Part shown: one piece after another, positions 4,775-30,932 of the stretch
How positions within the stretch are numbered: the stretch's first letter is position 1
Layout: the number at the start of each line of letters is the position of its first letter
Origin: a virus
Taxonomy: Duplodnaviria; Caudoviricetes
Length of the DNA: 30,932 nt
IMG/VR virus record: IMGVR_UViG_3300017903_001358
Span: 1-30,932 of that record
Reading direction: 5' to 3' (one strand)
Program-made: the position numbers and the translations under genes
The notes under the pieces: model-generated
What the model was told of the DNA's origin: nothing
Seen by the model: only the letters and a program-made list of their open reading frames with translations
Database searches by the model: none

Positions 4775-5021
4775 TTCGGAGTACAATTTGATCAAGTTTG
4801 GTTTCAATGCGTACCATATGATCTTCCATCCGACTTAACAGTTTGGCTAACTCAGACTTCTTAACATAATCAGAAGCCACAGTAAGCTCGATGTGGTCAA
4901 TTCGGCGGTCAAGCATATTAATACGTTGATGAACATTGTTTACTCTCGCATGTAACCTGCTATTTAGCGCGGCACCAGCTGCAACAGCTGCAATCGATAC
5001 GCTTACTATGGCTTCAATCAT
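4767..5021 (-). CDS. Small membrane-anchored coiled-coil protein (possible lysis/holin-like)
   Basis: N-terminal hydrophobic helix then heptad-like segment ending RIETKLDQI; position between fibre and terS as for T7 lysis genes. Confidence 0.7.
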   Translation of the reverse strand: MIEAIVSVSIAAVAAGAALNSRLHARVNNVHQRINMLDRRIDHIELTVASDYVKKSELAKLLSRMEDHMVRIETKLDQIVLRNV

Positions 5022-5182
5022 TTGTTGTTAGGGAAAAGTCCGTTACGAATAAATTCTACAGCTTGATCATCAATATCGTTGTCGGTAGATTCAGCAAGCT
5101 TGCTAAGCAGGTCAACAATAAGACGCTTAACTTGTTCAGATTGGAGGAAGGCAAAGAGGATTGGACGGATAAGCTTAATCAT
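5018..5182 (-). CDS. 54-aa small protein not in the ORF track (MIKLIRPILFAFLQSEQVKRLIVDLLSKLAESTDNDIDDQAVEFIRNGLFPNNK)
   Basis: Manually translated; fills the gap exactly, ATGA overlap with next gene; amphipathic with a TDNxIDD motif typical of small cyanophage proteins. Confidence 0.85.
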   Translation of the reverse strand: MIKLIRPILFAFLQSEQVKRLIVDLLSKLAESTDNDIDDQAVEFIRNGLFPNNK

Positions 5183-5187
5183 GATAA

Positions 5188-5634
5188 TTAGTTATTAGGT
5201 TTAGGAGGCCAAACAGGGTTGGCTGGATCGATTGTGTTAGCAGGAAGATCTCTCAAAGCTTGGCGGTAAACCCGCATTTCTTCAGTAAGAGTCTGATCTG
5301 TTAAAGCAAGGTAATCTGTTTCAGCTAATTCATAGTCTCTATCTCGACGTAAATATGCCCAATGATCTTCAATAGTAGGTACATATTCAGGCTCGGGCTC
5401 TGGAACATCAATATCTTCTGCAGGCTGGGGGTCTGGTTCCACTACGGGCGGAGGAATCAGTTCAATATCCCATAACTCTCCATCCCAGCGAGCGTGAAAA
5501 TCTTCACCATATTCAGGTACTTCTACAGCAGTTGCCTTTGCAGGAATCAAAAATACACCTGGTTCTAAAGGGCTTTCAGTGGCCTCAGTAGAACCAATGT
5601 AAATCCCTTCATCGTTGTAATGATAAATTTGCAT
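5188..5634 (-). CDS. Tail fibre assembly chaperone (Tfa-like)
   Basis: N-term IYHY...YIG...ESPLEPGVFLIPA.AT (Tfa-like); C-term LRRDRD..LAETDY...YRQALRDLP...WP; directly downstream of fibre. Confidence 0.85.
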   Translation of the reverse strand: MQIYHYNDEGIYIGSTEATESPLEPGVFLIPAKATAVEVPEYGEDFHARWDGELWDIELIPPPVVEPDPQPAEDIDVPEPEPEYVPTIEDHWAYLRRDRDYELAETDYLALTDQTLTEEMRVYRQALRDLPANTIDPANPVWPPKPNN

Positions 5635-5636
5635 AA

Positions 5637-8594: not shown

Positions 8595-8608
8595 AATTGT
8601 TAATAATT

Positions 8609-12601: not shown

Positions 12602-12618
12602 AGTTTAATTAATTTAAT

Positions 12619-15270: not shown

Positions 15271-15273
15271 AGT

Positions 15274-16116
15274 TTAACCTCCTCCGAAAAGTCCTTTCCA
15301 GTCAACTCTACCTAACGCCGAAGCAGCACCACTAACACCTGAAAATAGAGGTGCATATATGTTCTGCTGTTGTGCCGGTGCCGCCATCCCTGGGAAAACT
15401 TTTGCAGGTTCGATAAAGATTTGTGCAGGTGCTTGCGTCGGCATTGGTATATCAGGCAATGCTTCAGGTTTAATCATCATCTGTGCTTTAGCAGCTAAAT
15501 CAGCGCCATAACGTTGCATAGAAATCTGCTGCATGTTACGATTAGATTGCTCAACAGAACTAGCTAGGCTGGCATCCATGATAGAAGAATCGCGACCAGC
15601 AGCTGCCAATCTAGATTGAATTGCTTTATTTCTGCTGTTACCAGCTTGACCCAAGGCTGCAGTACCTTCCTGCTGCAAACGATCGACAAGCATACCCTGA
15701 CGATTAAAAGCATCTTCAGTCATGAGTTCGTTCAGTGATGCTTGTTCAGCAGCATAAGCATCAATTGCAGCCATACTATTAAAAGCTAGCTGATTCTCTG
15801 TGTTTTTAACTGATTGAGAATAACGCTCGACAACAGCTTTATACTCATAATCTTGGATCTGTTGATTATATCTCCAGTTCCTTAGTTCAGTGTCACGTGC
15901 CCACTTTCTATTTCTAAAATAGTTTTCTTTCTGAACTTCAAAGGCTCTTTTATTATACTCATTAGTATAATCAGCAGCTTTATCTAATGCTTCCTGTTGT
16001 TTTTTCTGTGCCTTTTTAGCTTCTTTATTAGCCTTTGATGCTGAAGAAGAACCAAAAATTCCACTGACAAGAGAAGCACCTGCACCAATACCTGCTAATA
16101 TTGTTTCAATAGCCAT
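15274..16116 (-). CDS. Internal virion protein, T7 gp14-like
   Basis: Gly/Ala-rich hydrophobic termini with Gln/Ala-rich coiled coil; synteny after tail tubular B. Confidence 0.78.
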   Translation of the reverse strand: MAIETILAGIGAGASLVSGIFGSSSASKANKEAKKAQKKQQEALDKAADYTNEYNKRAFEVQKENYFRNRKWARDTELRNWRYNQQIQDYEYKAVVERYSQSVKNTENQLAFNSMAAIDAYAAEQASLNELMTEDAFNRQGMLVDRLQQEGTAALGQAGNSRNKAIQSRLAAAGRDSSIMDASLASSVEQSNRNMQQISMQRYGADLAAKAQMMIKPEALPDIPMPTQAPAQIFIEPAKVFPGMAAPAQQQNIYAPLFSGVSGAASALGRVDWKGLFGGG

Positions 16117-16118
16117 AA

Positions 16119-18680
16119 TTAAGACCTCCTGTAATACTTATTAGAATAATTACCTTCCCACATCATTGAAACTAACGATACAGGGTATGGAAAATCACTT
16201 GTCACTTTAAGTTCAAAATTAGTGTTACGTTGATGGATAGGTAAGGTAAATACACGTTCCTGTATTACAGGATTAGTATCACCAGAATAAGTACCTGCTT
16301 CTGCAGTATGTTGTACATCTTTCCATTCGTTAGAACCTGTAGGCTTTATCTTAAAACGAATAGCGCCAGTGCGTCCGACAGACATTTTAATCCTGGCAAT
16401 ACTTAAATAAGCTGTGAAATCAGTTCCACTGTCTCCTCTAAGGTAAAACTTAGGCATTACTGCTTCTAAGTCATAACCATAACCAACTACAATACCATCA
16501 GCATAATCAGTAAAATCACCCTTTACTTCAAAGTATCGGTAATTAGTTGAAGGTTCAATACGTTCAATAGCATGAGTCCAGTAGCCTTGATCAGAATCTA
16601 ATTCAGCATCAGTACCTTTATCTGCTGTAGGCACTGTAAGGAGCATCACGGCGTCCTTATCGTCGATAGGGGTATAAGGTACATAGACCTTAGTAATGTC
16701 GTTTGTAGAGTCATATACGACTGCATCAACGTTACCTGGATCAGGACTGACAGGACGGGTAGCCATGTCAAGTGGTACATTACCAGTAAAACTAGAATCT
16801 GTAGAATAGATATTACCAGATGGTAGTTCATCCAGTTCAATAGTGCCAATGGTATATTGATTTTCCTGTAGTGATACAACAGTAACCGCATCGTCAATAA
16901 TACGTGCAGCTTGAATAGTACCAGGCAGTTCCCACTTTACCCATGCTTGGAATAGATCTTCCTTACCGTTGTTATAGAAACGATACATATACAAATAAGA
17001 TGTATCACGGTCAACCATCATAACAACAGAGTTAGGTGGACTGACAGTTAGGTCGTCTACAGTATCAGGAATCCATTCAAGCACAGCTTTACTAATGTCA
17101 ACCACAATAGGTGTCTGCTCAACATCACGGAGAGCCATGGTAAACAATTTGCTGTAACCAGGTACTCTACTAACAAATGCAACTGTAGTACCAATGTCTA
17201 CAGGTTGTACATTAGTAGCCATTTCATAGTTAGATAGCGTACGAATAACAGCAGAAGTAGGTGTCAAAATACTGGCATCTGTAGCATATACTTGAAACTG
17301 TTGTCGCTCACTAAACAACAATAAACCTTGGGGAGACGGTAGAACGTCAGACAAAATGACAGGACGCACACTAGATACGTTCAAGTCGATAGGGTCCGAA
17401 TCGATTTGAGTTAGTGCAGATCTAGAGAAGAAATTGTAACTGTCATTTGCAACACCAAAAATGACATTATCTTCAGATAGCAAACCGAACCTATTACTGT
17501 AAAAGAAAGTTGAATTAATCTTTTTACCGACAAAAGAAGGCTGAGGATTTGTGGTATCGTCACCAGTCTTTCGAGGCTTATAGTTAATAGGACCGAACGT
17601 AAATGTAGTCGCACCAGTATTCACCAGCTCATGGGGCATAGAAGCGTTATCAAGACCAGGTGATACATCACGTGCTACTGTTTCTTCCCAGTAACCACGA
17701 CCTCTGTCAATAGAAGTGTCATATGCAACAAATTTGACATAGTAATCATCTTCTTCAGAACTGCTGTTTAAAATTCTAACAACATGCCCGCCAAAGGATT
17801 CAAGAGGTAGTTTAGATATATCAGTTACATCATCTTCAAACACCTCAATACCAAGGTTACTAACACCACCTCTAGCATCAATATCAAAGGCTACAGCGTT
17901 ACCCGTAGGTGTGCTGTAGTCAGTGACAACTGCATTAGGTGTAGCATCTGTATGACGGATTACAAGACTATTGTTATAACCCTCTAGATACCACGTACCG
18001 TTAAAATCAGCATTAGATGCTGTTTGTTGTGTCTCGATAAGGTTCTTAATACCATCAATTAAATGGTGTGTATTTTGAATTTCTGAACCTGGTGTATCTT
18101 TATACAACAACATATCATCAAATGTTGTAGTATTTTGAGCCGTTACAGTAACTGATTCTCCTTCAATTGTAACCGTAAATTCATCGTCTACCGTAAGACT
18201 AATCAGTTTAAGGGTGGCTACAGAGTTAGCAACAAATGTACCAGCGGTTTGCATAGCAGTAGTTACTGTCTTATTAGTAACAATCGTAGTATCTTGAATG
18301 CTACGGAAGTGGTAGTCTTCTTGCTTTGTACCAGTAAGATAAGCTGAACCTGTACCAGTGTCTGTTACTGTACACCACGTGCCTTCATCAGCTGTCCATA
18401 CATACAAGTTTGTACCTTTGATGGCACCAATATAAGAGCCTGCAGCACCACGATCAATAAAAAACCATGCTGCATGTTCTAATTCAGTTTCGTTAAATGC
18501 AGTGCCGTCTGCCTTCTTCAGCACCTCAATGTGCTGCATCCCAGGACGTTTGAGCAAACCAAATGTAGGATCAGGATAACCGTTGACACACTCAGTCAGC
18601 TGGTTAATAAGTTTCTTGTCGTCAGTTTGGCGGGATACACCACCAAGAAAATTAGGGATCAGTTGTGTTACTGCTGTCAT
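16119..18680 (-). CDS. Tail tubular protein B (nozzle, T7 gp12-like)
   Basis: VTQLIPNFLGGVSRQ.D, GL.KRPG, GDD.TNPQPSFVG..I...FFY.NRFG.LS, D.DPID, Q.AW.KW, WEG.Y. Confidence 0.95.
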   Translation of the reverse strand: MTAVTQLIPNFLGGVSRQTDDKKLINQLTECVNGYPDPTFGLLKRPGMQHIEVLKKADGTAFNETELEHAAWFFIDRGAAGSYIGAIKGTNLYVWTADEGTWCTVTDTGTGSAYLTGTKQEDYHFRSIQDTTIVTNKTVTTAMQTAGTFVANSVATLKLISLTVDDEFTVTIEGESVTVTAQNTTTFDDMLLYKDTPGSEIQNTHHLIDGIKNLIETQQTASNADFNGTWYLEGYNNSLVIRHTDATPNAVVTDYSTPTGNAVAFDIDARGGVSNLGIEVFEDDVTDISKLPLESFGGHVVRILNSSSEEDDYYVKFVAYDTSIDRGRGYWEETVARDVSPGLDNASMPHELVNTGATTFTFGPINYKPRKTGDDTTNPQPSFVGKKINSTFFYSNRFGLLSEDNVIFGVANDSYNFFSRSALTQIDSDPIDLNVSSVRPVILSDVLPSPQGLLLFSERQQFQVYATDASILTPTSAVIRTLSNYEMATNVQPVDIGTTVAFVSRVPGYSKLFTMALRDVEQTPIVVDISKAVLEWIPDTVDDLTVSPPNSVVMMVDRDTSYLYMYRFYNNGKEDLFQAWVKWELPGTIQAARIIDDAVTVVSLQENQYTIGTIELDELPSGNIYSTDSSFTGNVPLDMATRPVSPDPGNVDAVVYDSTNDITKVYVPYTPIDDKDAVMLLTVPTADKGTDAELDSDQGYWTHAIERIEPSTNYRYFEVKGDFTDYADGIVVGYGYDLEAVMPKFYLRGDSGTDFTAYLSIARIKMSVGRTGAIRFKIKPTGSNEWKDVQHTAEAGTYSGDTNPVIQERVFTLPIHQRNTNFELKVTSDFPYPVSLVSMMWEGNYSNKYYRRS

Positions 18681-19567
18681 TAGCGTTGCAAAGTATGGAA
18701 CGGTTTATAGCTATTATAAAAATTCTGTCCTTGAGGCTCGCCAAAGAAGGAAAAGTCACCTTGATTACATTCATACTCCATAGCAATAGACCGTGCAAAG
18801 GCTTCCTTTTGCTGAAGGAACTGGTACAGGTTAGCATCACCCATGGTACGGCTAGAAAAGATAACAGCAGCTCGTGCTACGATAAATGCTTGAATAGGAT
18901 CAGGAATATATTCCCAATCAAAATACCACAAGATGTCAACATATACTTCAGCATCAGTCCACTTATAAGTATGGTTAACACGATCGTAAAGTTTACCCCC
19001 ACGGTTAATGCTATCAAATTGACGGTTACCAAACCTCTTTGAAGAAAGGTTTAGATCAACCTGTAGCATGTTATCAGAAATTATAATTTCGTTGTTTGTG
19101 TCAGGTGTAAGTTTATAGTCATATTCTTTATTAAAAGTCCATCCTTCGCTTTGTACTTCACGTGACACTTCTCTAAGAGTGTTGAGTGCAATCGCAACGT
19201 CCGGGTTGGCTTGGGTTTCAACTCTGGTTGTAACCTCATTACGAGTCAAGGTGCGTTCAGATACAGTCTGTGAAATGTTCAGAGTGTATTCATACGTAAC
19301 AGGATCGGTTGCAGGTACGGCTTCAACGCCAGCTACTGCAATAGATGTACCGTCAGTAACACCATTACCACCAATATAAGTACCAACAGGAATGTTAGCA
19401 GTTTCAGTAGTAAGTGTAGTACCCGAAATGGAACCAGTAAATCGAGAAACTTCATTAATAATAAGAGTTTCTTCAGTCGTCAACGTGGTAACAGGAGCCT
19501 GACCAACTGACGCCAGGATCTGATTAACAGCTTTAAGCTCAGTGGAGCCAGTCGATAGGTAAGGCAT
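18680..19567 (-). CDS. Tail tubular protein A (gatekeeper, T7 gp11-like) with ~90-aa insertion
   Basis: TEL.AVNQIL..VGQAPVTTL, EVQSEGWTFNKE, RGGKLYD; longer than the ~200 aa typical of gp11. Confidence 0.93.
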   Translation of the reverse strand: MPYLSTGSTELKAVNQILASVGQAPVTTLTTEETLIINEVSRFTGSISGTTLTTETANIPVGTYIGGNGVTDGTSIAVAGVEAVPATDPVTYEYTLNISQTVSERTLTRNEVTTRVETQANPDVAIALNTLREVSREVQSEGWTFNKEYDYKLTPDTNNEIIISDNMLQVDLNLSSKRFGNRQFDSINRGGKLYDRVNHTYKWTDAEVYVDILWYFDWEYIPDPIQAFIVARAAVIFSSRTMGDANLYQFLQQKEAFARSIAMEYECNQGDFSFFGEPQGQNFYNSYKPFHTLQR

Positions 19568-19601
19568 AATTGCAAATGAGTGTTATTCTCAATAAAGAAT
19601 T

Positions 19602-19628
19602 AAAAAAAGGAGCCCCCGAAGAGGCTCC
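19602..19628 (-). terminator. Intrinsic terminator after capsid gene (T-phi equivalent)
   Basis: GGAGCCTC-TTCG-GGGGCTCC-TTTTTTT just after the capsid stop. Confidence 0.93.
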
Positions 19629-19635
19629 AAAAGAA

Positions 19636-20757
19636 TCAGAATGCAGAAGGCTTCACGTTAGTAGCATAAAGCTCAACAGCAGCAGCGGGATTCAGGTAGT
19701 CAGCGCCCATGGCGAGACGGCCCAGAATCACATCACCCTGATAGATAACGGAGACATCGCCACTGGTGACTTGCACCTGGGGAGCGATGGCTTCGAGACA
19801 ACCAGCAGCTTCACGCTGGAAGATCAGACCACAAGAAGTGGCACCAACCTCAGTAGCAGTACCGTAGTCATTGTTGACACCGGTAGTAGCGCCGGAAGCG
19901 TCTTCAATGGTTTCACCAATGAAGGAACCGGTGTTACCAGGATCAGAAACAGCACCGCCGTACTTAACACCATACTTGCCGAAGAACGGAATATGCATGG
20001 ACTTGTAGATCTTGATACCAGCGATTTCCACGATACCTTGACCACCTTGCAGTGCAGTACCTTGGACATCACGGTTAACGAGACCGTTAGAACCAACAGC
20101 TTGGATCAGTTCATAATACTGACGAGGGTTCAGAACAGCAACACGGCCATCCATAGACACACCCTTTTCATCCAGAGCAGCAGCAGCATCATAGAATGCA
20201 GCAACCAGCTTGGCAGAATCATAAGCATCAGCTTCAGCACCGGTTCCAGAACCGACTTGGATCTGAGTACCACCGGGCTCAACATAGTTGGTAGCAGAGA
20301 TGGGAGATGCAGCACGTGCACCGCGAGTGATCGCACGGAAGATATAGCGGTCATACTTTTCAGCCAAAGCATAGCCGATCTTACGAGAGATCTCAGATCG
20401 CAGATCATAATGAGACAGGACTTCATCCAGCTCATATACAAACGAGGAGCTGATAAGAAGATCATCTACTGTAATGGTCTTCTCAGCCACCGGAGGTGCA
20501 TTGTTGCTGTCACCAAGGATGCTGTTTCCAGGAGTATGGAACTCACTCTTGGTACGTCCAGTGTAGATGAACTGCATGGACTTACCATTGGTCAGCGTAC
20601 GCTTCATGATCAGATCACGAGCGATCGTATTGTGTTGGAAACCTTTGAACATTTCTCCACTGAAAAGCTTCAGATAGAGAGCACGGGTATCACCCGCAAG
20701 ATTAGCCTGACCCAGCTGAGTAAGCTGAGCAGGGTTCACAGAAGATTGAAATGCCAT
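19636..20757 (-). CDS. Major capsid protein (T7 gp10-like)
   Basis: ALYLKLFSGE, RTL.NGKS.QFIYTGR, EKTIT.DDLLISS.FVY.LDE.L.HYDLR.E, QGD.I.GR.AMGA..LNP.AAVEL. Confidence 0.97.
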   Translation of the reverse strand: MAFQSSVNPAQLTQLGQANLAGDTRALYLKLFSGEMFKGFQHNTIARDLIMKRTLTNGKSMQFIYTGRTKSEFHTPGNSILGDSNNAPPVAEKTITVDDLLISSSFVYELDEVLSHYDLRSEISRKIGYALAEKYDRYIFRAITRGARAASPISATNYVEPGGTQIQVGSGTGAEADAYDSAKLVAAFYDAAAALDEKGVSMDGRVAVLNPRQYYELIQAVGSNGLVNRDVQGTALQGGQGIVEIAGIKIYKSMHIPFFGKYGVKYGGAVSDPGNTGSFIGETIEDASGATTGVNNDYGTATEVGATSCGLIFQREAAGCLEAIAPQVQVTSGDVSVIYQGDVILGRLAMGADYLNPAAAVELYATNVKPSAF

Positions 20758-20785
20758 TGTTTTTTATAAAGAGGTTTAAGCAAGT

Positions 20786-20870
20786 TCCTCTGGATCCAGA
20801 GTATTTAGTTTTATTGTGGTCTATCCCACCGTCTAGACGGTCAGAGGTATCGGCGTACCGGCTCTAACCA
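20786..20870 (-). ncRNA. Putative structured cis-regulatory RNA in capsid leader
   Basis: GGTTAGAG/CTCTGACC stem enclosing a CGG-TACG-CCG hairpin; GTCTA/TAGAC and GTGG/CCAC pairings; perfect 14-bp palindromes at 20828-20841 and 20788-20801. Confidence 0.5.
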
Positions 20871-20877
20871 ATAAGTA

Positions 20878-20900
20878 AAGAGGGGAATCGAACCCCTCTC
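20878..20900 (-). other. tRNA T-arm-like hairpin (not a full tRNA)
   Basis: GAGAGGGG-TTCGATT-CCCCTCTT: canonical TTCGA T-loop on a 7-8 bp stem. Confidence 0.7.
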
Positions 20901-20912
20901 AATGTCACCAGA

Positions 20913-21014
20913 TTACCTTTTGTACTCAACTCCACGATAACGAAGCGTATCGAGACGATAACGATCAGCCCGCTTGCGCTGGTTTTTAAGGAAACGAATA
21001 AGATTAATAGACAT
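20913..21014 (-). CDS. 33-aa DUF4278-like YRG peptide (MSINLIRFLKNQRKRADRYRLDTLRYRGVEYKR), not in the ORF track
   Basis: Manual translation; L.YRGV.Y motif; directly downstream of a glutamine-II riboswitch. Confidence 0.85.
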   Translation of the reverse strand: MSINLIRFLKNQRKRADRYRLDTLRYRGVEYKR

Positions 21015-21029
21015 AGTTCGTACAAATAA

Positions 21030-21079
21030 ACCTAGCCCCCGTTCCATGACTAGGTAACATGCGTCCCTAAGGATGAACG
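21030..21079 (-). ncRNA. Glutamine-II riboswitch (Downstream-peptide motif)
   Basis: CGUUCA-UCC-UUAG-GGA-CGCA-UGUU-ACCUAGUC-AUG-GAACG-GG-GGCUAGGU: P1 CGUUC/GAACG, P2 hairpin, 8-bp pseudoknot ACCUAGUC/GGCUAGGU. Confidence 0.88.
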
Positions 21080-21094
21080 TACGAATAATTGAAA

Positions 21095-21820
21095 TTATCC
21101 AAACACTGCGGTGGCCATTGCATCGCCTTGCTCGTTGCCGTTTAAAAAACCTCCACCGAAATTGTAATCTACAACGTAAGAAGAACCTCCAGGCGTGTTG
21201 TTATGCCCCATATCACCTGACCCATTAGCGTTAGCCAGGGCGGTTATTGTAGATTCAAGTTGATTAGTGCCGAAGGTGTGGCCGTCCGCAACTGAATAAT
21301 AACCAGCGCTAATCAACCTGCCACTGCTGAAATTAACCGTAGTTGATAAATCAGTAGTGTTTGAATTTTGCTGTTCATCAACATCTGTAGAAAGAACAGA
21401 AGCACCGCTTCCATTGATGAGCCTATAGGCCACTAATGCACTTCTGAATCCATTTGATTGATTCATGGTGAGGGATGCGTTTACAGTCGTGTCTCCGGCA
21501 ACTACTGAACCTTCAACGTAAAAAATTCCAACTCTTGCATTTCCCGCAGTATTGCTATTTGATACAGCCACGCTGGCGGTTGTACTATTAACGGTTAAAG
21601 AGAATGTTGCACCAGCACCGCTAACCGTTGGATTTGTCGATCCGCCTTCCGCAAGATAAACAAATATGGCTAAGTCGTTAGAAGTAAACACGCTTAAATC
21701 TACGTCAGTAAAGGAAACACTTGGTCCGCTGTTGTCAGCAAGACCATATACAAAATCAATATCTCCCAAAACCGAAGGAGAGTTGTAAATTTTAGTAATT
21801 AGTGCTTGGTGAATTGCCAT
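21095..21820 (-). CDS. Putative distal fibre/receptor-binding protein (beta-rich, Ser/Thr/Gly/Asn-rich)
   Basis: 241 aa, TAATG-coupled to the upstream fibre gene; MAIHQAL N-terminus; beta-sandwich-like composition. Confidence 0.65.
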   Translation of the reverse strand: MAIHQALITKIYNSPSVLGDIDFVYGLADNSGPSVSFTDVDLSVFTSNDLAIFVYLAEGGSTNPTVSGAGATFSLTVNSTTASVAVSNSNTAGNARVGIFYVEGSVVAGDTTVNASLTMNQSNGFRSALVAYRLINGSGASVLSTDVDEQQNSNTTDLSTTVNFSSGRLISAGYYSVADGHTFGTNQLESTITALANANGSGDMGHNNTPGGSSYVVDYNFGGGFLNGNEQGDAMATAVFG

Positions 21821-23022
21821 TAGGTAATCGTTCCAGTGACCACGAATTCGTTTGAACCTACGCAGAGAATAGTTGCTAAACCTCGCTGCCCCAAAGTTCT
21901 GTTGCCAGTGTTTGCAGTGCCTGCTTCGCGCAACGTCACGCTTGCGCCCTGTGTAATCGTCTGGCTAGAACCGCTGTCGTTGTAGATCGTGACGATGTTG
22001 CCTGCACTGAAGACACCGCTTGGAACGGTCACGCCGCCAGTTGTGATGCTGACGTGCTTGCCGTTATCACTTGCGACCAGCGTGTAAGCGGAGGTTTGTG
22101 CGTTTTGTGGAACATCCGTCGGGCCTTGTGGTCCGGTAGGTCCCGCTGGGCCAGCACCTGCCAAGCTAAAAATTGTGATGCCAGACTTGCTTAGTTCTGC
22201 TGTGGCAGTAATTGTGGCATCATTTCTAGTGGCAAAAACTTCAATCGTATCATTTGCGCTGGCATCAATTATGGCTGAACCTACACAAGTAAAATCTCCG
22301 TCTGCGTTGTTTCTTGAGTAAGCAGACGCGAACGAACCGGAAACCGTTGAGCCGTTTTGCCTCAACGATGTCTCAACAATAACCCTGTTGTTACCAGCGG
22401 TTTGGTCACCATCAAGACTGTATTCAACAAAATACTTAGCCGCATTCAAAATAGTGATAACACCTGTTGCGCTAACCGTAAAATCTCCAGTGCCTGTAGT
22501 TAAAACGGTTGTGTCAAAATCAACAGTAACGCCAGCAGTTGTAACCTCTTGCGTACCTGTTCCATCGGCGTGGATATATTTAACATCTTCGCCACCACCA
22601 CCGTTTGCTGCTGCGGTGATCCTGCCTTGTGCATCAACGGTGATGTCTGCCGCTGTGTACGAACCAGCGGTTACAGCTGTGTCTGCAAGCTTCGCAGCAG
22701 TAACGGCGTCGTCAGCAATCTTTGCAGTAGTAACCGCATTTGCGCCAATGTTGCCATGCTGCACCGCACCGGTGTTTATCTTGGCCGAGGTTACTGCGTT
22801 GTTGTCAATCGTCCACGTTGCGCCACTGTTGCTAACAGTTATGTCACCCTTGTCGCCGTCAGTAATACCGCCGCCACCACCAGCGCCGATTTCATGCACT
22901 GAGTTGTCGTCAAGCTTTGTAAATAGCCCGCCGTCAGTCGTATTGATCGCAAGCTCGCCTACGACTAAATCAGAGGCTCCAGGATTTGTGGTGCCCCTTT
23001 TGTGCTTGATTGTGTTGGCCAT
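21820..23022 (-). CDS. Tail fibre-like protein (Mtd-N-like start, AVT.AKI repeats, C1q/BclA-like domain, collagen triplets)
   Basis: MANTIKHKRG...L..GELAINTTDG.LF; DGDKGDITVS; AVTxAKI/L repeats; GPAGPTGPQGP; PQNAQTSAYTLVASDNGK. Confidence 0.8.
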   Translation of the reverse strand: MANTIKHKRGTTNPGASDLVVGELAINTTDGGLFTKLDDNSVHEIGAGGGGGITDGDKGDITVSNSGATWTIDNNAVTSAKINTGAVQHGNIGANAVTTAKIADDAVTAAKLADTAVTAGSYTAADITVDAQGRITAAANGGGGEDVKYIHADGTGTQEVTTAGVTVDFDTTVLTTGTGDFTVSATGVITILNAAKYFVEYSLDGDQTAGNNRVIVETSLRQNGSTVSGSFASAYSRNNADGDFTCVGSAIIDASANDTIEVFATRNDATITATAELSKSGITIFSLAGAGPAGPTGPQGPTDVPQNAQTSAYTLVASDNGKHVSITTGGVTVPSGVFSAGNIVTIYNDSGSSQTITQGASVTLREAGTANTGNRTLGQRGLATILCVGSNEFVVTGTIT

Positions 23023-23025
23023 GGA

Positions 23026-24099
23026 TTAGTAGGTGCCGCCGTCAATCTCAGCGTTTGGACTGAGGTAGTCAGTCTCGTCAACAGCAGCAGTAAAAGCTCC
23101 AGTGCCGTTGCCTTTGACCAACCCTGTAATAGTAGTCGCGCCAGTGCCGCCGTCAGCAACTGCAAGCGTTCCAGTAATTGCGGATGCGCCAAGGTCAACC
23201 GCAAGCTCAGTGGACTCAATAACCAAGCCGCCGTTGGCTTTTAGGTCAACGCTCACCGTTGAGCCGGAAACGTCAATGCCGTCGCCCGCGACTGGAGCGC
23301 CTGCCGCCGCAGCAATGGTGATTGAACCACTACCTTCGGTGATCGTAATGTTGCTGCCAGCCGTAAGAGTCGCAAGCGTGTAGCCGGTGCCGTTGCCGAT
23401 TGCCAGTTGGCCGTTTGCTGGTGTTGCGGTCAGTCCAGTGCCGCCATAAGCAACCCCGATTGCGGTGCCGTTCCAGGTGCCAGTAGCAATGGTGCCAACA
23501 GAAGTCAGGCTGGAGCCGGTAACGCCAGAGCCAAGAGTTGAGGCAGACAGCACGCTAGTGCCGTTGATCTTGAACTCTTTGCCGGAAGCCAGGTTGACGT
23601 GCTCGGAAAAATCCCAGCTGTCGCTGCTGTTCGTCCAAACAATCGTGTGATCTGTTGCACCTTTAAGGGTGATGCCGCCGCCGTCAGCAGTTGTGTCCGT
23701 AGGGGTGTCAACATTGCCAAGAACAATGTTTTTGTCTGCGACATTAACAGTCGTGCTGTCAACAGTTGTTGTCGTGCCGCTAACGGTCAGGTCGCCGGTA
23801 ACGGTAAGGTTGTTGCTAAACGTCGTGTTGCCTGAAAGCGTTGCACCGCTAAGGTCAACCGTCCCAGTAAAAGTCTTGTTGCCGCTTACGGTTTGAGCAG
23901 TGTCAAGCGTTGTGAACGCGCCATCGCCGCCAATTGCAATGACAGATGAGCTTGTGCCGTCACCGTCATCACCGAGACCGTAATAAAGCTTCCGGTCAGA
24001 GGTATTTTCGTTAAACGCAAGCTCTGATGGAGCCAAGGTGGTGGGCGCACCAGCCGATCCCGTAGCTGCACGCTTTTTGATTCGGATGGTGTTGGCCAT
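23026..24099 (-). CDS. Tail fibre-like protein
   Basis: MANTIRIKKR...L...ELAFNE; LTV.GTTTTVDSTTV.V.DKNI.LG; SSLTSVGT; VAYGGTG/VADGGTG; ends IDGGTY. Confidence 0.8.
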   Translation of the reverse strand: MANTIRIKKRAATGSAGAPTTLAPSELAFNENTSDRKLYYGLGDDGDGTSSSVIAIGGDGAFTTLDTAQTVSGNKTFTGTVDLSGATLSGNTTFSNNLTVTGDLTVSGTTTTVDSTTVNVADKNIVLGNVDTPTDTTADGGGITLKGATDHTIVWTNSSDSWDFSEHVNLASGKEFKINGTSVLSASTLGSGVTGSSLTSVGTIATGTWNGTAIGVAYGGTGLTATPANGQLAIGNGTGYTLATLTAGSNITITEGSGSITIAAAAGAPVAGDGIDVSGSTVSVDLKANGGLVIESTELAVDLGASAITGTLAVADGGTGATTITGLVKGNGTGAFTAAVDETDYLSPNAEIDGGTY

Positions 24100-24102
24100 G
24101 GC

Positions 24103-24363
24103 TTAGAAATCGCCTCCTTTGACGATTGTAGAAACGGTCCAGATGTCGTCAGCTTTGAACTGACCTGAGGCTGCGTCGTAGTAAACTACGCTCTTGTCTA
24201 CTTTAGCGGAACTGTCTAGATCAATACCCTCGCCTTTCGGGCCTTGGGGGCCAGCGGTTGTCGCGGTTACGACATTCGTCTTTGTTGTTTGGACAACAGT
24301 TGAAGTGCCGTTATGCGTAACAGTAACGGTTGGCTTTTTTGTTGTTACGTTGACGGTGGTCAT
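24103..24363 (-). CDS. Small collagen-motif fibre connector protein
   Basis: Thr/Val-rich, GPQGPKG, ends GGDF; ATGA overlap with upstream gene. Confidence 0.75.
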   Translation of the reverse strand: MTTVNVTTKKPTVTVTHNGTSTVVQTTKTNVVTATTAGPQGPKGEGIDLDSSAKVDKSVVYYDAASGQFKADDIWTVSTIVKGGDF

Positions 24364-24698
24364 GCGGTGTAACCCTCCGAAACGTAGATGACTCCTTCTA
24401 AATAATACTCTTTGATGTCGCTTTGATCCGTTAAAAGCACGTCATAGTATGCTTCATTAGGAAAATCAGCAGTCTGCGTGTCGGTCAGGCTAATGGTGAT
24501 CTTGCCTGCGCTGCGATCTGTGTAGGCGACAGCAAAATCTGCGTATTTGGTGGTGCGCTTCTTGTTCCAGGCTTGAGCTTCAGCAGTCCAACCGGTCAGG
24601 TCAATTGCGGCATCATCGCTGTCCTTGAACTGCAGCAAAACGCTGTAGTCGGCGCGGCGCTGCAACGTGATGTTGTACGTTCCAGGTTGGACAGCCAT
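24360..24698 (-). CDS. Small Ig-like virion adaptor protein (BppU-N-like)
   Basis: YNITL.R.AD...IDLTG.TA.AQ...G.ITISLT..QT...YYDVLL...YLEG; GGAGG Shine-Dalgarno upstream. Confidence 0.75.
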   Translation of the reverse strand: MAVQPGTYNITLQRRADYSVLLQFKDSDDAAIDLTGWTAEAQAWNKKRTTKYADFAVAYTDRSAGKITISLTDTQTADFPNEAYYDVLLTDQSDIKEYYLEGVIYVSEGYTA

Positions 24699-24746
24699 AA
24701 TGCACCTCCGTCTTTCTAGTTTAGGCCATAAACCGAGCTAGGCCAA

Positions 24747-25913
24747 TCAAGTCTTGATGCAGGGCAACAGAGCCATGTTTTGTGGCCGCGCTTCGGTGCC
24801 ACCGTCGTCACTAATAGTCGTTGAGGTGCTGATTGACAGATTGCCACTGGAATTAACTGAAACGCTGTGGCTGTGGTTGCCAACACTGCTTGTACCGTAA
24901 TTAGATTGATTGTCAAAATCGTTGCGGGTTTCGAGTAGTTGATCTGAGTCTCCAGTGTCGGGATCAGGGTTGCGGCCTCTAACGACAGTGTGGCTGTGCC
25001 CACCAGCTCCGGTTGTACTTGCGCCGTGGCTGTGGCTGCCGCCTGTTGTAGTTGAACTCGCTGTGTGACCGTGAGACAAGTTTTGGCTTGATTGTGTTGT
25101 GCCAATCGCGCCAGTAAGACTTCCTTGCCCTCGTAAAAATTGATTCCGCAAATCGGGCAGATTAAATGTAGTTGACCCGTCACCGGAGCCGTAGTTAGTG
25201 CCAATTGCGTCAAACAAATCGGAATAAGTTGTGCGACTAACCGCCGCGCCATTTGCATGTAAGTAACCCGTGGGTGCTGTTGTTCGTGCGCTAAAAATAA
25301 TTGTCCCAGCAGGCGTCAGGTCGGTTGCTGCTGGAATGGAGTCAATCTCATCATCTACATATTTTTTGTTTGCGGCTTGGTTGTCAGTACTTGGGTCTCC
25401 GACAAGCGTTAACGAGCCGGTCATCGTTCCACCGGCCAACGCTAAATAAGTGCTTGCAGCATCTGTAATTTGCTCGTATCGCGCATCAGCATCGGTTTGG
25501 CTTATGCCTACAGGATCAACACGAACAAAGTTTGCACCGTCATAAATTTTTAGTTCGTCTGGGTCTTGCGATGTGTCAAGCCATAATTGTCCTAATGCAG
25601 GGCTAGCAGGCGCAGATGTTCCAGGGCTTGTAGCAACTGAAGATCCGGGCAAAAAGCTCACAATCGTAAAGCTTGCGCCGTTGTAAACCTTTAGAACTGG
25701 GGGGTTTGTAGTGGTGTCTACAAAAAGCTGGCCGTTATACGGTGAAGCAGGCTCTGTCGTGCCAACGGTCAAGCCTAGCTCTACAAGCCTCAATGCCAAG
25801 TTGTTGGCGGTAATCTTACGGGTTTCGCTGCCGCTGATGCTACTGAAAGGAATAACGTCAGGGCTGGCAACAGTGGTCGCCGCTGGCAGCTGAGAGATTC
25901 TGGTATTTGCCAT
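24747..25913 (-). CDS. Side tail fibre with phage tail-collar domain and His-x-His tip
   Basis: RISQLP N-term; two P..GQL(F/W).DT...LK.Y.G repeats; YLALAGGTMTG; AANKKYVD; collar PAGTII...PTGYL.ANGA.VSRTTY..LF.AIGT.YG.GDGSTTFNLPDLR; EARPQNMALL.CIK. Confidence 0.88.
   Translation of the reverse strand: MANTRISQLPAATTVASPDVIPFSSISGSETRKITANNLALRLVELGLTVGTTEPASPYNGQLFVDTTTNPPVLKVYNGASFTIVSFLPGSSVATSPGTSAPASPALGQLWLDTSQDPDELKIYDGANFVRVDPVGISQTDADARYEQITDAASTYLALAGGTMTGSLTLVGDPSTDNQAANKKYVDDEIDSIPAATDLTPAGTIIFSARTTAPTGYLHANGAAVSRTTYSDLFDAIGTNYGSGDGSTTFNLPDLRNQFLRGQGSLTGAIGTTQSSQNLSHGHTASSTTTGGSHSHGASTTGAGGHSHTVVRGRNPDPDTGDSDQLLETRNDFDNQSNYGTSSVGNHSHSVSVNSSGNLSISTSTTISDDGGTEARPQNMALLPCIKT
24766..25105 (-). 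repeat. Fibre-tip cassette, copy 2 (direct repeat of 5656-5995)
   Basis: See copy 1; same orientation, offset 19,110 nt. Confidence 0.95.
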
Positions 25914-28900
25914 TAGTAGCCGACGATTAAAAGATCAACTAGGCCGGTCACGCCAGTCCCAGAAGAGTCTAGACACTTAATCGTAACCGAATCGCTGGCT
26001 TTTGCAGTAACCACAGCCGTAACCGCTGTTGAGCCGCCAGTCTGCAAGGCTGTGATAGACACGCTCTCAACGCTGCGGAAGGTCTTTGTCAACGACACCT
26101 GCGTTCCAGCAGCTGCAATTGCCACGTCGTTTTGCTTCTCAATAATGTCGGGGTAGTCAAGCTCAGCTGTTAGGGCGGTAAGGTTGCCCGCCGTCACGCC
26201 CCCGTCAGGGCTCTTAAATCTAGTTTCAACGCGGTAGACATCTCCGAGCAGTTTTTCAAATGGAGCGTAGGGGTGGACAACCCCGCCTTCCGCAAGCTCT
26301 GTATCAGAATAGAAACGCTGCTCTGCCAACAAGTTAAAGCCCCTGGCGGCATAGGTGCCTGACGCACTGCCAGACAACGTGATTGCGGCACCACCACTCG
26401 TAGCAGCCACCCTAAAGCTTGTGTGAGTTAAATCGGTTGTAGCCACAAAGTAGGTAACCCCAGTGCTGATTCCTGTAGGCAACGTGCCAGAAACCTCGAC
26501 AAATTCAAGCGTGTCCCCTGCGCTTAAATCATGTTGAAAAGTGGTGCCGTCCCTCTGCAGCTCAAAATCATTTGCAGACACGTCAATCACAACATCTAAA
26601 TCCTCAAGCAACAAACCGTCACCGTCTTCCTTTGAAACCACATTGTCGTTGCCAGTCAGCGCAACTAATCTGTGCTGAAATGTGGCCGTTCCAGTAGTCT
26701 CAAACAGCAAGGCACTTTCGCTGTTGTTGTTGTCAAAATTCCAAGTAAAAAAGCTGTCTAGCTCTGGGTCTGTTTGAACGAGGTTCCCGCCCGAAACTTC
26801 GCAGTTGTCATAGGTTCCAGGCCAATCGTTTGTAGGGGCATTTTTTGCATCAATCGATTGAATCGCGTTGCTTACGGGTGGAGCGCCAATGTTTACAAGC
26901 ACAAACGCTGGCACGTCAGCCCGCCACTGTGTCGCGTCAACTGCTTTGACCATGACGACAAAAGTGCCGCGATCAAACAAACTCGTTTCAAACCATTGCT
27001 GTTGAGCAGGTAAGCCGCCAGAAGCCAATTCAATCCCAGCATCCCAAGCTGCTTGCGTATTCAAGCGTCTAGAAAGATCCGCTGGCCCTGTGATTGTGTA
27101 AACGCCGGTTGCCGTCCCAGTAAAATCAATTGGATTGCCACCACTTGTTGCGCTGACTCTAAATTGTGTGCTTGTAAAATCGTCGTCAACAACAAAATAA
27201 GTTTGTCCAGACGTAACGCCTGTTGGTAGTGTTCCCGTTGTGGCCTCAAAAACAACTTCATCGCCTACGTTTATTAAATGCTGGTTCGTCCTGGTTCCAA
27301 CTACAGTTCCCGTTTTAATCAAAACAACGTTGTCTGTCAGGTTAAATTCAACTGCATTTGCAGGCAATGTGCCCGACTTAAATCTTACTTCGTAGCCAAC
27401 AACGTCTGCAACAATTTGTTGATCCCAGCTGCCATACTCTGTTAAAGGTAATTGCCAGCTAAATCGCTTTCCGCTGCTGTTTTGGTTTTCAACAACTCCA
27501 AAATTACTTGGGGTGGGTGGAGCAATTTCAGACCGCTCTACAAAATCATAAATGTAATCGTCAGGCTCCTCGCCAAAAATTGCGCTTGTAAAGTTTACCC
27601 TCACGTCGTAAGTGTCAGGTGCGTGAAAAGCAACTGTGTAATATCCAGTCAACGGGATGTCTGCCAAGAAATACCAGCCTTCTTCGTTGGGTGGTTTCAC
27701 ACCAGGGATTTCGCCGGAGCCCAAAACTCTAGGCTTGCACCAACACTTGTAACCACTGACTCGCTCAGGGATTGGCGTAGTTCCAGGATCAACAATGACA
27801 AGTTGCGTGCCATCAGGCTGGTTGGCGTGCGTAACGGTTGCAGCAAAATCAGAATCACTTAAATCTGGGATTGGGTCAAATGGATCAACGTCATATTCTG
27901 CAAACTCAGATTGTTCACCAAGGCGATCAACTGTTGCGACTTTTACTTGATACTGATTGCCAAAAACATGCGTTTGCAACGGTATGTCTATGTTTGTGTC
28001 TTGAATTGTGATTAGCTCAGACCAATTTGCGTCGTTTACTTTGCGCCATTGATACCTGTAACCACGAATGAGCAGATCAGCAGCGCCGTTGACTTGTGGG
28101 GGCTTCCAAGACGCTGAAATGTATGTTGTGCCGTTTGAATACTCTAATTTGCCTGATAAATTAACAGGCTCTGTTGGAGTGCGAACCTCAAAACGGTCTT
28201 TTGGTACTGCAATCGGCAAGTTGTTGTCAACGTACCCATACTTGCTGTTGTTATACTGAATTGCTTCTACTTGATAAACAAGAGGCTCAACCTCAGCGAT
28301 TGAAACTATTCGGTACTGTGCGGGTTTTAAGTCAATCCACTCAAGAACCCAAAGGATATTTTTCTGTGTTGGTGGAATTTGATCTGTTACCAGTGTGGTT
28401 GTAAGATCGTCAGCATCTGTTGAATCAGAAAGCACATTTGCTTTAAGCAATTTTGGCTTGTAATATTTAGTGCTATCTGGGTTTATGACTTCTTCGCCGT
28501 TAGGGATAACGATTGAAATGTCGTAAGAAATGTTATCGTCTAGGTTCAAAAGTGCGTCTAGTGTCACGCTGTTGCCGTTAACCGACTTGACTCTGCCTCC
28601 GAGCCTTTGGCCCTGCCTGACAGGATCTGCAATTTGAATAACTTCGCCAACACCAGCAGCAAGCCCTTCAGCACCAATACGGAAGCTAACCTTGTCGGTT
28701 TCATAGCGATTGCTAAATAAAGTATGCTTCGCCGCACGAAGAGCCTGGCCCCTGCTGGTTACACCAAGCAACCTTAAATCAACAGGGTTGTACCCAAAAC
28801 GCTCCAGCAGCACATCATCTTGCTGGTACTCTGCAACGGCAGCGTAATTTTGGGCCGGATCATCCCAGCTTGCGATACATACAGTTTTGCGAGCAGCGCG

Positions 28901-30175
28901 GGCAGATCCTACATAAGAAAAACAAGGACGAACAACTTTGCCACTTTCGTCAACATCTTGAATTACATTGGCCTCACTAAACTGCTGAACGGGCACCTGA
29001 GCCCTGTCTTGGGTTACATACAATTCGCCAGCGTTGTAATAAAGTAAGCCCCTAAAACATGAAGCCAATGAGTTCAGAACTTGATAAACGCTGCCAGGAT
29101 TCTGCAAATAAACATTGCAAGTAAATCTTGGCTCGTTTCCGCCCTTGCCGTCAGGAACATTTTCGTCGCAATACTGAGAAATTGTGTATAAGCTCCATTT
29201 GTCTAATTCAAGGTTTGACGCATAACGGCGAACACCATATCGCTCACTCATGCAAATATCTCTAAAGATCCAAGCGGGATTGTCCGTCCAACTGTCTACA
29301 AACGTTCCGTCCCAAACCCCTGTATAAGTTCTTGTGGTTGGGTTGTAGTTGCTTGGTATTTGAACCCGTTTGCCCTTAAGTCGCACGGTCACATCGGGAA
29401 TGGTGCTGAACTGCCGTGCATCTACCTTCACCCCAAGCACTGCAGTGTTTGGATAGGCAAGTTTTTCGTCAATAATTTCAACGAACGATTGCCAAATAAT
29501 ATCGTTAGCCAATCTTGAAGAAGAGCTGTTTGAAGTTACTCTTTCAACCCTGACCTGCCAAGGGCCATCGCCAGTAAGATTAAATTCATACGCTCGCTGA
29601 AACTCACTATTTGACTTTCCACTAATTGTTTTGTCTACAACAGTTGTGTAGACACCTCCGTTTACGCTTAGTTGGATTCTGTACCTAACACTTGTGCCAT
29701 TAATGTCGCCGTTATCGGCGTTTTGTGCTAGCAACGAGGGATGCGAAATAATAACTCGGCATCTTTCAACATCAGTATCAGTAATTGATCTAACAATAGG
29801 AGTGCCTCTCTCAACTTTTACGCCGACACTTGTAACATTTTCTGATTGGGTAAACCCTGTTAAAGCGTCTTGAGCGTTCGTGCCAGTCTTAAATTGTGTT
29901 GTAAAGCCTTCAAAATTTTCAGAACCGTCTGCGTTCTCAATAGGCACTCCATCTAAAAAAATGTCTCTATTGGCGCTTGTTGGAAAGCCTTCAATTTCAC
30001 CTTCTGACAAGGCGTAGACAGTTTTTGCAAATGCAGTTGAAAAAAGATTGTTGCGAACTTCTACCGGAGTTCTCTGCTTAGGAACAACGACCTTAGTCTT
30101 GCTCCTGCTCTTGCTGCTGCCGCCACCGCCTTGGCCAGTGACTTGGGTTTCTTTTTGATTTTTGTCAGTCATCAC
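25913..30175 (-). CDS. Lambda J-like tail tip / host-specificity protein
   Basis: GQGGGG start, ALSEGEIEG, IFLDG.PI, YPNTA..G..VDA.QF, VQIPSNYNP..RTY.G.WDGTF...WTDNPAWI, EPRFTCN, G.TSRGQA.R, G.RLGGR, FN3-like repeats. Confidence 0.93.
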   Translation of the reverse strand: MMTDKNQKETQVTGQGGGGSSKSRSKTKVVVPKQRTPVEVRNNLFSTAFAKTVYALSEGEIEGFPTSANRDIFLDGVPIENADGSENFEGFTTQFKTGTNAQDALTGFTQSENVTSVGVKVERGTPIVRSITDTDVERCRVIISHPSLLAQNADNGDINGTSVRYRIQLSVNGGVYTTVVDKTISGKSNSEFQRAYEFNLTGDGPWQVRVERVTSNSSSSRLANDIIWQSFVEIIDEKLAYPNTAVLGVKVDARQFSTIPDVTVRLKGKRVQIPSNYNPTTRTYTGVWDGTFVDSWTDNPAWIFRDICMSERYGVRRYASNLELDKWSLYTISQYCDENVPDGKGGNEPRFTCNVYLQNPGSVYQVLNSLASCFRGLLYYNAGELYVTQDRAQVPVQQFSEANVIQDVDESGKVVRPCFSYVGSARAARKTVCIASWDDPAQNYAAVAEYQQDDVLLERFGYNPVDLRLLGVTSRGQALRAAKHTLFSNRYETDKVSFRIGAEGLAAGVGEVIQIADPVRQGQRLGGRVKSVNGNSVTLDALLNLDDNISYDISIVIPNGEEVINPDSTKYYKPKLLKANVLSDSTDADDLTTTLVTDQIPPTQKNILWVLEWIDLKPAQYRIVSIAEVEPLVYQVEAIQYNNSKYGYVDNNLPIAVPKDRFEVRTPTEPVNLSGKLEYSNGTTYISASWKPPQVNGAADLLIRGYRYQWRKVNDANWSELITIQDTNIDIPLQTHVFGNQYQVKVATVDRLGEQSEFAEYDVDPFDPIPDLSDSDFAATVTHANQPDGTQLVIVDPGTTPIPERVSGYKCWCKPRVLGSGEIPGVKPPNEEGWYFLADIPLTGYYTVAFHAPDTYDVRVNFTSAIFGEEPDDYIYDFVERSEIAPPTPSNFGVVENQNSSGKRFSWQLPLTEYGSWDQQIVADVVGYEVRFKSGTLPANAVEFNLTDNVVLIKTGTVVGTRTNQHLINVGDEVVFEATTGTLPTGVTSGQTYFVVDDDFTSTQFRVSATSGGNPIDFTGTATGVYTITGPADLSRRLNTQAAWDAGIELASGGLPAQQQWFETSLFDRGTFVVMVKAVDATQWRADVPAFVLVNIGAPPVSNAIQSIDAKNAPTNDWPGTYDNCEVSGGNLVQTDPELDSFFTWNFDNNNSESALLFETTGTATFQHRLVALTGNDNVVSKEDGDGLLLEDLDVVIDVSANDFELQRDGTTFQHDLSAGDTLEFVEVSGTLPTGISTGVTYFVATTDLTHTSFRVAATSGGAAITLSGSASGTYAARGFNLLAEQRFYSDTELAEGGVVHPYAPFEKLLGDVYRVETRFKSPDGGVTAGNLTALTAELDYPDIIEKQNDVAIAAAGTQVSLTKTFRSVESVSITALQTGGSTAVTAVVTAKASDSVTIKCLDSSGTGVTGLVDLLIVGY

Positions 30176-30807
30176 GCAGAATTTTGGATCTCAAGGCCAA
30201 AAGAAACCACCGGCAACGCTCCAATTATGCGTTCCCCATAAAGGATAGCTATGGCCTCGCCTTGGGCCGTATTGGCATTTGATTTGTCAAAGGTATAGGC
30301 GTTTAACTGCTCCTCTTCGTCCCTGCCAGAGGTTGACGATCCAAAGTTTGCTGCACTTGGTACTTTTGGTGTTGGTGTCAGCAGATCTGCCACACCGCCA
30401 AAAATAAGAGAAGCACCTAAAGCGCCAATACCTACTGCTGCTGAAGAGCCTAAGGTAAAACCGAAGATACTTCCGGCTAAAAGGCCCCCTGGCGCAAAAA
30501 CGATTGCAGCCGCTACAAGTGCAACACCAGCAATAATCTTGCCAACGCCGCCACGACCCGTGGGCAATGGCACTAGCACCATCCTCTTGCTCATTGGCCA
30601 AAGCAACTGCTCTTCGTCCAAACCTTGCGGACTCTCAGTGATGACGCGCCAGGTAATCCCCTTTTCGCCTGACTCCACCAGATACTGACGCAATTCAGGC
30701 AGCTGAAGGCAAAGAGCGCGAACAGCTTCTGCAGGCGTTTTTACCGCCAGCTCGAACTGCCTACCGAAACGTCGGCCTGCCTCGCCTAGTAGCTTGATGA
30801 CCGCCAT
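30172..30807 (-). CDS. Lambda I-like tail assembly protein
   Basis: IKLLGE.GRRFG...LAV.TPAEAVRAL; G.GG.GKII.GVALVA; LTPTPK; Y.F...NT.QG..I.ILYGE.IIG. Confidence 0.92.
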   Translation of the reverse strand: MAVIKLLGEAGRRFGRQFELAVKTPAEAVRALCLQLPELRQYLVESGEKGITWRVITESPQGLDEEQLLWPMSKRMVLVPLPTGRGGVGKIIAGVALVAAAIVFAPGGLLAGSIFGFTLGSSAAVGIGALGASLIFGGVADLLTPTPKVPSAANFGSSTSGRDEEEQLNAYTFDKSNANTAQGEAIAILYGERIIGALPVVSFGLEIQNSA

Positions 30808-30932
30808 TAGGCACCTCGCCTCACGACTATATGCGTATTATTGCGGAAATAATCGGTGTATGACATTAACTCCGATTTTCTGTTGACCAAATGCTGAAAG
30901 ATCAAGTTGGAGCTTGGATCTTCGAGCACGGC
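30807..30932 (-). CDS. Lambda K-like (NlpC/P60) tail assembly protein, C-terminal fragment truncated by window edge
   Basis: Manual translation AVLEDPSSNLIFQHLVNRKSELMSYTDYFRNNTHIVVRRGA*; TAATG overlap with I; K-I-J synteny. Confidence 0.7.
   Translation of the reverse strand, partial: AVLEDPSSNLIFQHLVNRKSELMSYTDYFRNNTHIVVRRGA

Follow-up and report, generated by a model that had tools for sequence, protein, structure and literature searches.

The 30,932-base viral contig IMGVR_UViG_3300017903_001358 (the window; it is the entire contig, and the record holds no sequence past 30,932) carries the capsid and short-tail genes of a T7-like cyanopodovirus next to the tail tip and side fibres of a lambda-like siphovirus, with every gene on the minus strand and frames intact across the whole length. 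The contig is probably an assembly crossover between a podovirus like Synechococcus phage S-RIP1 and a siphovirus like Cyanophage KBS-S-2A, at a 1.8-kb fibre cassette that occurs in both podovirus and siphovirus contexts. This cassette, termed R, holds the distal part of a 400-amino-acid (aa) side fibre and a 241-aa partner gene. The surrounding segments are lettered A (podovirus upstream side), B (podovirus arm), C (siphovirus fibre side) and D (siphovirus lysis and replication side). Sequence comparison gives R two left flanks and two right flanks, which would correspond to A-R-B in the podovirus and C-R-D in the siphovirus; the window is C-R-B. A recent exchange of fibre tips between podoviruses and siphoviruses stands whatever the status of the contig.

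Both alternative flanks of R are on record. The comparison covers database loci and four of 20 available sample runs (X1, X2, X3 and X5), all of them assembled contigs; X1 may be the source of the window and is not independent support, and X2 is from another study. The junction R-D is seen in locus L123, which is 93.6% identical to the window over 21093-22279 in a match that ends at the stop codon of the 241-aa gene; past the cassette, L123 continues with a small gene, endolysin and HNH, then with ThyX, sigma factor and PolA on the other strand. The junction A-R is seen in L125 and in X2. L125 has the order portal, scaffold, psbA, a 62-aa gene, a collagen gene and a collagen fibre ending in R, and the C-terminal part of this fibre is 91.8% identical to the window over 22375-22878. 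The second X2 contig covers 21206-22869 and then departs from the window, with departing letters that match the L125 collagen-fibre gene at 28/30 positions (compared by eye). The adjacencies A-R, R-B and R-D are each present in other data, C with a related fibre and D is found in L124, and single contigs of related podoviruses span A-R'-B. The podovirus and siphovirus copies of R have 92-94% DNA identity. Among 395 loci, some from contigs counted twice and most of them short, podovirus markers are present in 123 and long-tail markers in 102, and both sets together in none. Where gp10 loci have at least 1 kb upstream, psbA is there in 44 of 50 and any right-arm gene in 0 of 50. X2 lacks coverage in 11 of the 12 bins between 23,164 and 30,932, which is not counted as evidence.

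The 400-aa gene is the likely crossover site: the window appears to follow the podovirus copy of R and, at the 5' cassette edge, to pass over into C, since a segment shared with L125 and the placement of the window in a domain tree fit this path. The first 69 residues of the 400-aa protein are unchanged in four database proteins (P0008, P0126, P0127 and P0070), all of which are without the segment 69-100 that the window has in common with the podovirus L125; three of the four end in L123-type alleles. In a tree of the middle-plus-tip domains (68 rows: P0007-P0068 out of the 120 hits listed, and six more taken from the window and from loci), the row nearest to the window is the L125 copy, with support of 96/63 for a row that fills 27% of columns, and the podovirus-island copies need two separate origins in 200 of 200 bootstrap trees. 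At the point of exit, the window and L125 are identical for 93 bases (22780-22872), the X2 contig leaves the window at 22869 and a siphovirus-side X1 contig begins at 22892. The X1 depth is 54.6 in 22805-22874, and residues 47-145 of the 400-aa protein match 85 loci. The protein cluster of the window's full 400-aa version has a single member from a single contig.

Codon usage changes along the same stretch. On a log2 scale per codon, the left genes score -0.10 to -0.19 and the genes right of 22,879 score +0.17 to +0.42, while the 241-aa gene is intermediate at +0.06 +/- 0.06. The sequence-only reading of the contig was thus correct that the two modules differ in codon usage; the shift is not sharp at 21,095 but spread over 21,095-22,900. 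Within the 400-aa gene, three of four parts are clearly siphovirus-like (+0.32 to +0.37) and the middle domain scores +0.09, whereas the native podovirus tip in L364 (-0.19) and the collagen part in L125 (-0.18) have podovirus-like codons; these values suggest that a podovirus tip and partner gene were replaced by a siphovirus copy.

The join itself had been suspected at 21,080-21,100, where the podovirus arm meets the 241-aa gene. An X2 contig of 1,017 bases with 12 differences covers 20221-21228 and spans 21,093 with 135 bases on the right, and an X1 contig of 392 bases with no differences spans it as well. Since the X2 contig comes from another study, the 21,093 junction is genuine podovirus sequence, and the doubtful step is 1.8 kb further right. 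Microhomology at 21,093 was looked for and none was found. Pattern searches were blank and carry little weight, as the scanned sets may lack records close to the window: an exact 41-base junction pattern had 0 matches in viral contigs, an exact 24-base cassette pattern had 0 matches in metagenome contigs, and the 241-aa alignment gave 320 pattern matches and 0 relatives in metagenome contigs.

The natural order of the podovirus would be portal, scaffold, psbA, a collagen-fibre operon ending in R, riboswitch and capsid, and that of the siphovirus L, K, I, J, side fibres ending in R, lysis genes and replication genes. The podovirus lineage likely took R from a siphovirus by recombination, in a replacement of the tip and partner gene of its island collagen fibre that may have used short conserved domain boundaries. 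A swap of recent date would leave two phages in the same sample with a near-identical repeat, at which an assembler could walk from the podovirus into the siphovirus. Such repeats in mosaic phage genomes are a known cause of chimeric contigs, according to the available portion of PMC10104058. The depths in X1 are compatible with this course, although they are contig means only and are weak evidence: the left arm is at 7.6, the near right arm at 12.6 and the cassette at 19.5-22.4, and 7.6 + 12.6 = 20.2. A second haplotype of R in X1 equals L123 at 29 of 29 listed sites.

Several observations weigh against an assembly crossover. Only one bubble is visible in X1, and its depths (13.2x for the window allele, 8.2x for the L123 allele) run opposite to the simple expectation. 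Depth is 11.9x on the X1 contig that spans 21,093, and three right-arm contigs of X1 are at 7.1-10.6x, near the depth of the left arm. None of five partly aligned X1 contigs leads into an L125 or L123 flank, though contigs that diverge at a branch have only ~30 bases in common and may escape alignment. Pieces of both arms are found in X1, X3 and X5 (three of four runs), which also fits a shared host. The X2 path across the cassette rests on two contigs (4.2x and 4.9x) that overlap by 23 bases, P0008 and its relatives are represented here by their protein sequences, and most of the 395 loci are too short to reach both arms. The case is built from assembled contigs rather than raw or long reads, and genuine recombination across 1.8 kb would yield an identical sequence.

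Such a recombination is the basis of an unlikely alternative, in which the contig is a dead-end recombinant or co-integrate present as DNA, formed by homologous recombination across the 92-98% identical cassette in a doubly infected cell. Near identity over 1.8 kb is ample for homologous recombination, the cassette alleles form a mosaic across strains (at 20 of the 30 sites listed in 21835-22393, X2 has the alternative allele of X1), the arms co-occur in the three runs noted above, and L125 (A-R) and L123 (R-D), which by contig names are from the same assembly, could be the reciprocal product. However, the contigs L123 and L125 each break off within the cassette, as is usual at a repeat, and a rare molecule should not win the assembly. 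A full co-integrate would measure ~85.6 kb, whereas the isolate genomes have 44.9 and 40.7 kb, and, given the presumed capsid limit, it would not be packaged. That C-R-B is real DNA, recombined across the cassette between a podovirus and a siphovirus that infect one cyanobacterial host, and that it propagates, either as one two-tail genome or as a passenger borrowing portal and scaffold from a co-infecting podovirus, is highly improbable and, if true, would be very surprising. The contig is continuous with intact frames, some X1 arm depths overlap (7.1-10.6x vs 7.6x) and, of the two alleles in the visible bubble, that of the window has the greater depth; a stable hybrid would combine a siphovirus head-tail module with a T7-type capsid and short-tail module. 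The T7 capsid and gp11/gp12 need a T7-type portal and scaffold, yet these lie on the displaced A side. The window together with the head-tail module of a siphovirus already amounts to ~51 kb without replication genes. None of the 395 loci carries both marker sets, and the arms in X3 are unequal in their likeness to the window, with 3 differences in 1,218 bases on the left and 21 in 512 on the right.

It is scarcely credible that the contig is a podovirus with a captured tail-tip or tailocin-like block in its psbA island and with its own portal and scaffold past 30,932. The psbA island does take up fibre and adhesin genes, but the gap between psbA and gp10 is 155-1,772 bases among 44 podovirus loci and more than 10 kb would be needed, and L081, a 97% relative of the right arm, runs 7.5 kb of tail genes without any podovirus gene. 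The sequence-only reading had named ordinary siphovirus sequence beyond the window as what would speak against a hybrid, and L081 carries it from K and L through the tape measure onward. Of the four origins then offered, the assembly chimera is the best supported, and the two-tailed hybrid and captured tailocin-like module are the least. With an assembly crossover as the preferred explanation, the contig also serves as a warning: intact frames and a junction spanned in another sample are insufficient to make a contig real, because the break would lie 1.8 kb away inside a shared module.

The podovirus context of R is an operon of its own. Some marine T7-like cyanophages carry, by their gene order, a second, collagen-type fibre operon between the scaffold and capsid genes, in addition to the gp17 that the podovirus already has. 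L364 holds in one contig the portal, scaffold, 62-aa gene, collagen gene, collagen fibre, 231-aa partner gene, riboswitch, gp10, gp11 and gp12, and its collagen fibre has an R-type middle and tip (63%). The same collagen-fibre operon stands before psbA and gp10 in L365 and L367, and L374 has a shorter form. Portal and scaffold are upstream of R in L125 and of a relative of R in L364, L365 and L367. The tip and partner gene of this island operon appear, on sequence comparison, to have been exchanged with siphovirus side fibres. Used as a positive-control query, the 62-aa gene returned 37 loci, while the collagen-fibre query was rejected as a finder of relatives, as it returned mostly unrelated collagen repeats. 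A literature search, with most subscription papers outside its reach and with gene tables that may list such genes as hypothetical, found no description of an island collagen-fibre operon and no podo-sipho two-tailed phage. In other loci (L036:6124-7392, L062:1242-2598, L374:574-3071, L035 and L045), the island before gp10 consists of a 62-67-aa gene followed by lectin-like or repeat-rich proteins, of which the lectin-like protein in L374 is Laminin_G_3. The 62-67-aa island gene could be a shared attachment point for an appendage that is not always present.

The 241-aa gene starts one base before the stop of the 400-aa fibre. In each of the five loci found by search with the fibre C-terminal domain, another gene begins no more than one base from the stop codon of the fibre; the same holds for L364, L365 and L374. 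The first residues of this partner are kept while its body changes: it is all-beta in the window, glycine-rich in L124 (where the same N-terminus is followed by a glycine-rich domain) and unrelated in L364, whose same-place gene has no profile similarity to the 241-aa gene past the first residues (probability 0.4%). A conserved start with a variable body predicts a swappable adhesin on the fibre tip; with moderate likelihood, the fibre tip and the 241-aa partner are predicted to form a virion appendage for host binding and would thereby constitute an exchangeable module. The structure model of the 241-aa protein (predicted local distance difference test, pLDDT, 65) resembles predicted minor tail proteins at a template modelling (TM) score of about 0.5. 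Fold hits in the PDB (TM at most 0.3) were discounted as beta folds of a generic kind, the protein atlas returned unnamed viral clusters only, and the fibre had no matches among solved structures at E up to 1. The database protein P0002, from one contig, carries an unrelated N-terminus in front of residues 22-241 of the 241-aa protein, possibly as a result of another mis-join in the cassette.

Table 1. Features of the window with their positions, strand and supporting evidence.
Feature	Position	Strand	Evidence
Structural and packaging arm of T7-like cyanopodovirus (B): gp10, 11, 12, 14, 15, 16, 17, HNH, TerL, ThyX	241..20757	-	PHROGs/Pfam; S-RIP1 comparison
gp10 (within B)	19636-20757	-	
Glutamine-II riboswitch, 5' of capsid gene	21030..21082	-	Rfam RF01704, 52.6 bits
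Shared cassette (R): middle and C-terminal domains of 400-aa fibre, plus 241-aa gene	21093..22878	-	L123, L125, X2 contigs
241-aa all-beta protein, predicted swappable adhesin paired with fibre tip	21095..21820	-	Position, L124 N-terminus, structure model
400-aa side-fibre gene; residues 1 to ~48 siphovirus-type, shared cassette from ~49	21820..23022	-	Comparison with P0008, P0126, P0127, P0070, L125
Widespread hub motif, 5' edge of cassette, where podovirus and siphovirus paths part	22780..22921	-	L125 identity, X1/X2 contig ends
Siphovirus side-fibre cluster (C): 357 aa, 86 aa, LtfC-like 112 aa, 388-aa collar fibre	23026..25913	-	Pfam LtfC, Collar
Lambda-like tail tip: J, I, end of K; KBS-S-2A-like cyanosiphovirus origin	25913..30932	-	PHROG 31, 32; Pfam FNIII-A_GpJ, Lambda_tail_I
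J (within tail tip)	25913-30175	-	
I (within tail tip)	30172-30807	-	

The left arm has the gene order of a T7-like cyanopodovirus, gp10-11-12-14-15-16-17 followed by a T7-type TerL, and the complete short-tail set that had been read from the letters is recovered in full by PHROGs and Pfam. The same searches find no T7-type portal or scaffold upstream of the capsid gene anywhere in the contig; the contig as a whole is therefore not classed as a podovirus genome. It does not extend to the early region, where a single-subunit RNA polymerase would be expected. The Glutamine-II riboswitch is likewise 5' of gp10 in L001 and L364 and is a normal trait of these podoviruses. The 241-aa gene does end in an intact TAA at 21095, as had been noted, but the riboswitch follows after 12 bases (Rfam hit 21082-21030) rather than 15. 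Of the start contexts said to tell the modules apart, AAYTATG is indeed found on the left (gp11, 14, 15, 16 and 17), whereas the TAATG overlap is not confined to the right, as it also occurs at gp12. Directly after the riboswitch is a 33-codon frame (20913-21014, minus strand) without a Pfam match, with a hairpin and T-rich sequence behind it at 20900-20878. A 389-aa gene before TerL (2811-3980, minus strand) matches no PHROG or Pfam family.

The right arm has a K-I-J tail tip and then side fibres, as in KBS-S-2A-like long-tail cyanosiphoviruses, and by its relatives appears to be ordinary siphovirus sequence. The earlier count of K-I-J plus six fibre or adaptor genes on the same strand is borne out: J is followed by the 388-aa collar fibre, the LtfC-like 112-aa gene and the 86-, 357-, 400- and 241-aa genes, and these six with the end of K, I and J take up 9,838 bases. 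The side-fibre order of C after J is repeated in many siphovirus loci. The window ends within K, of which only the last 41 codons are included (40 of 41 identical to the K of L081). L081 is 96.9% identical over 29830-30932, a 1.1-kb overlap, and continues upstream with K, L, tape measure, chaperone, a gene at the tube position (75% to the KBS-S-2A gene) and a terminator. At the other end of the fibre cluster, the lysis genes are absent from the window, with the podovirus arm in their place, and are present in L123 and L124; L124 has relatives of the LtfC-like, 86-aa, 357-aa and 400-aa genes and then the same lysis and replication genes as L123.

Further observations concern related loci and the window itself. 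The tape-measure frame of L081 (L081:2568-6187) stops abruptly, and no M-like gene of at least 70 aa is found before L, a possible break or mis-join. In L158-L161, which are podovirus-like contigs, sequences related to the 357-aa gene and to the N-terminal part of the 400-aa protein are directly upstream of a T7-type portal (28% to the L125 portal). The siphovirus ThyX of L123 (L123:3073-3705) is 55% identical to the podovirus ThyX. Within the window, the C-terminal 220 residues of gp17 are 66% identical (148/223) to the C-terminus of the siphovirus collar fibre (5635-6203 and 24745-25316), with DNA blocks of 73-86% over the shared stretch. This likeness points to a second, older exchange of fibre domains between podovirus and siphovirus lineages.

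The closest isolates of both arms, as judged by sequence identity, are phages of Synechococcus. S-RIP1 (Autographiviridae, Kajamvirus; NC_020867.1), of the MPP-B cyanopodoviruses, has the same gene order from gp10 to TerL and ThyX as the left arm, with identities to the window of 93% for gp10, 91% for TerL, 88% for gp16 and 86% for ThyX; ThyX is present in Synechococcus MPP-B phages in the part of PMC4646655 that was available. Ahead of gp10, S-RIP1 carries scaffold, hli, psbA and small genes, with no fibre operon among them. The podovirus of the window differs from S-RIP1 in that its island ends in a siphovirus-type fibre tip and partner gene. KBS-S-2A (NC_020854.1), which has a lambda-like long tail and Synechococcus WH7803 as host, is 65.5% identical to the window in J, 72% in I and 71% in the collar fibre, and to L081 it is 75% identical in the tube, 75% in L and 67% in K. 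Its order of tail, fibres and endolysin, then sigma factor on the other strand, matches L123 and L124, while it is without detectable LtfC-like, 86-, 357-, 400- and 241-aa genes. The contig is like the chimeras caused by repeats in that two genomes have a common module and both alternative flanks are on record, here as seen in contigs alone.

In its position next to psbA and its variable content, the podovirus island is like the genomic island II of cyanopodoviruses, to which the excerpted text of PMC7885011 assigns two genes, with the fibre genes put in island III; here, several contigs hold in that place a collagen-fibre operon with an exchangeable tip. The pair of fibre and partner also recalls gp37-gp38 of T-even phages, a fibre with a separate adhesin, and the glycine-rich tips described for S16 gp38 and Pam3 gp24 in the accessible section of PMC9608196. 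Similarly to gp37-gp38, a small gene is directly behind the fibre and has a conserved N-terminus and a variable body, which is glycine-rich in L124. By contrast, neither by sequence nor by fold does the pair match a solved structure, the 241-aa allele is all-beta rather than glycine-rich and the pairing is predicted; no homology to gp37 or gp38 was found, and the pair, which may work alike, is not classed as a member. Variable genes after the tail fibre affect host range, as far as the consulted part of PMC5520035 extends. Podoviruses and siphoviruses of marine cyanobacteria thus appear to trade predicted host-recognition fibre tips, and if the product of the island operon is a virion appendage, it would be an overlooked host-range determinant of an abundant phage group.

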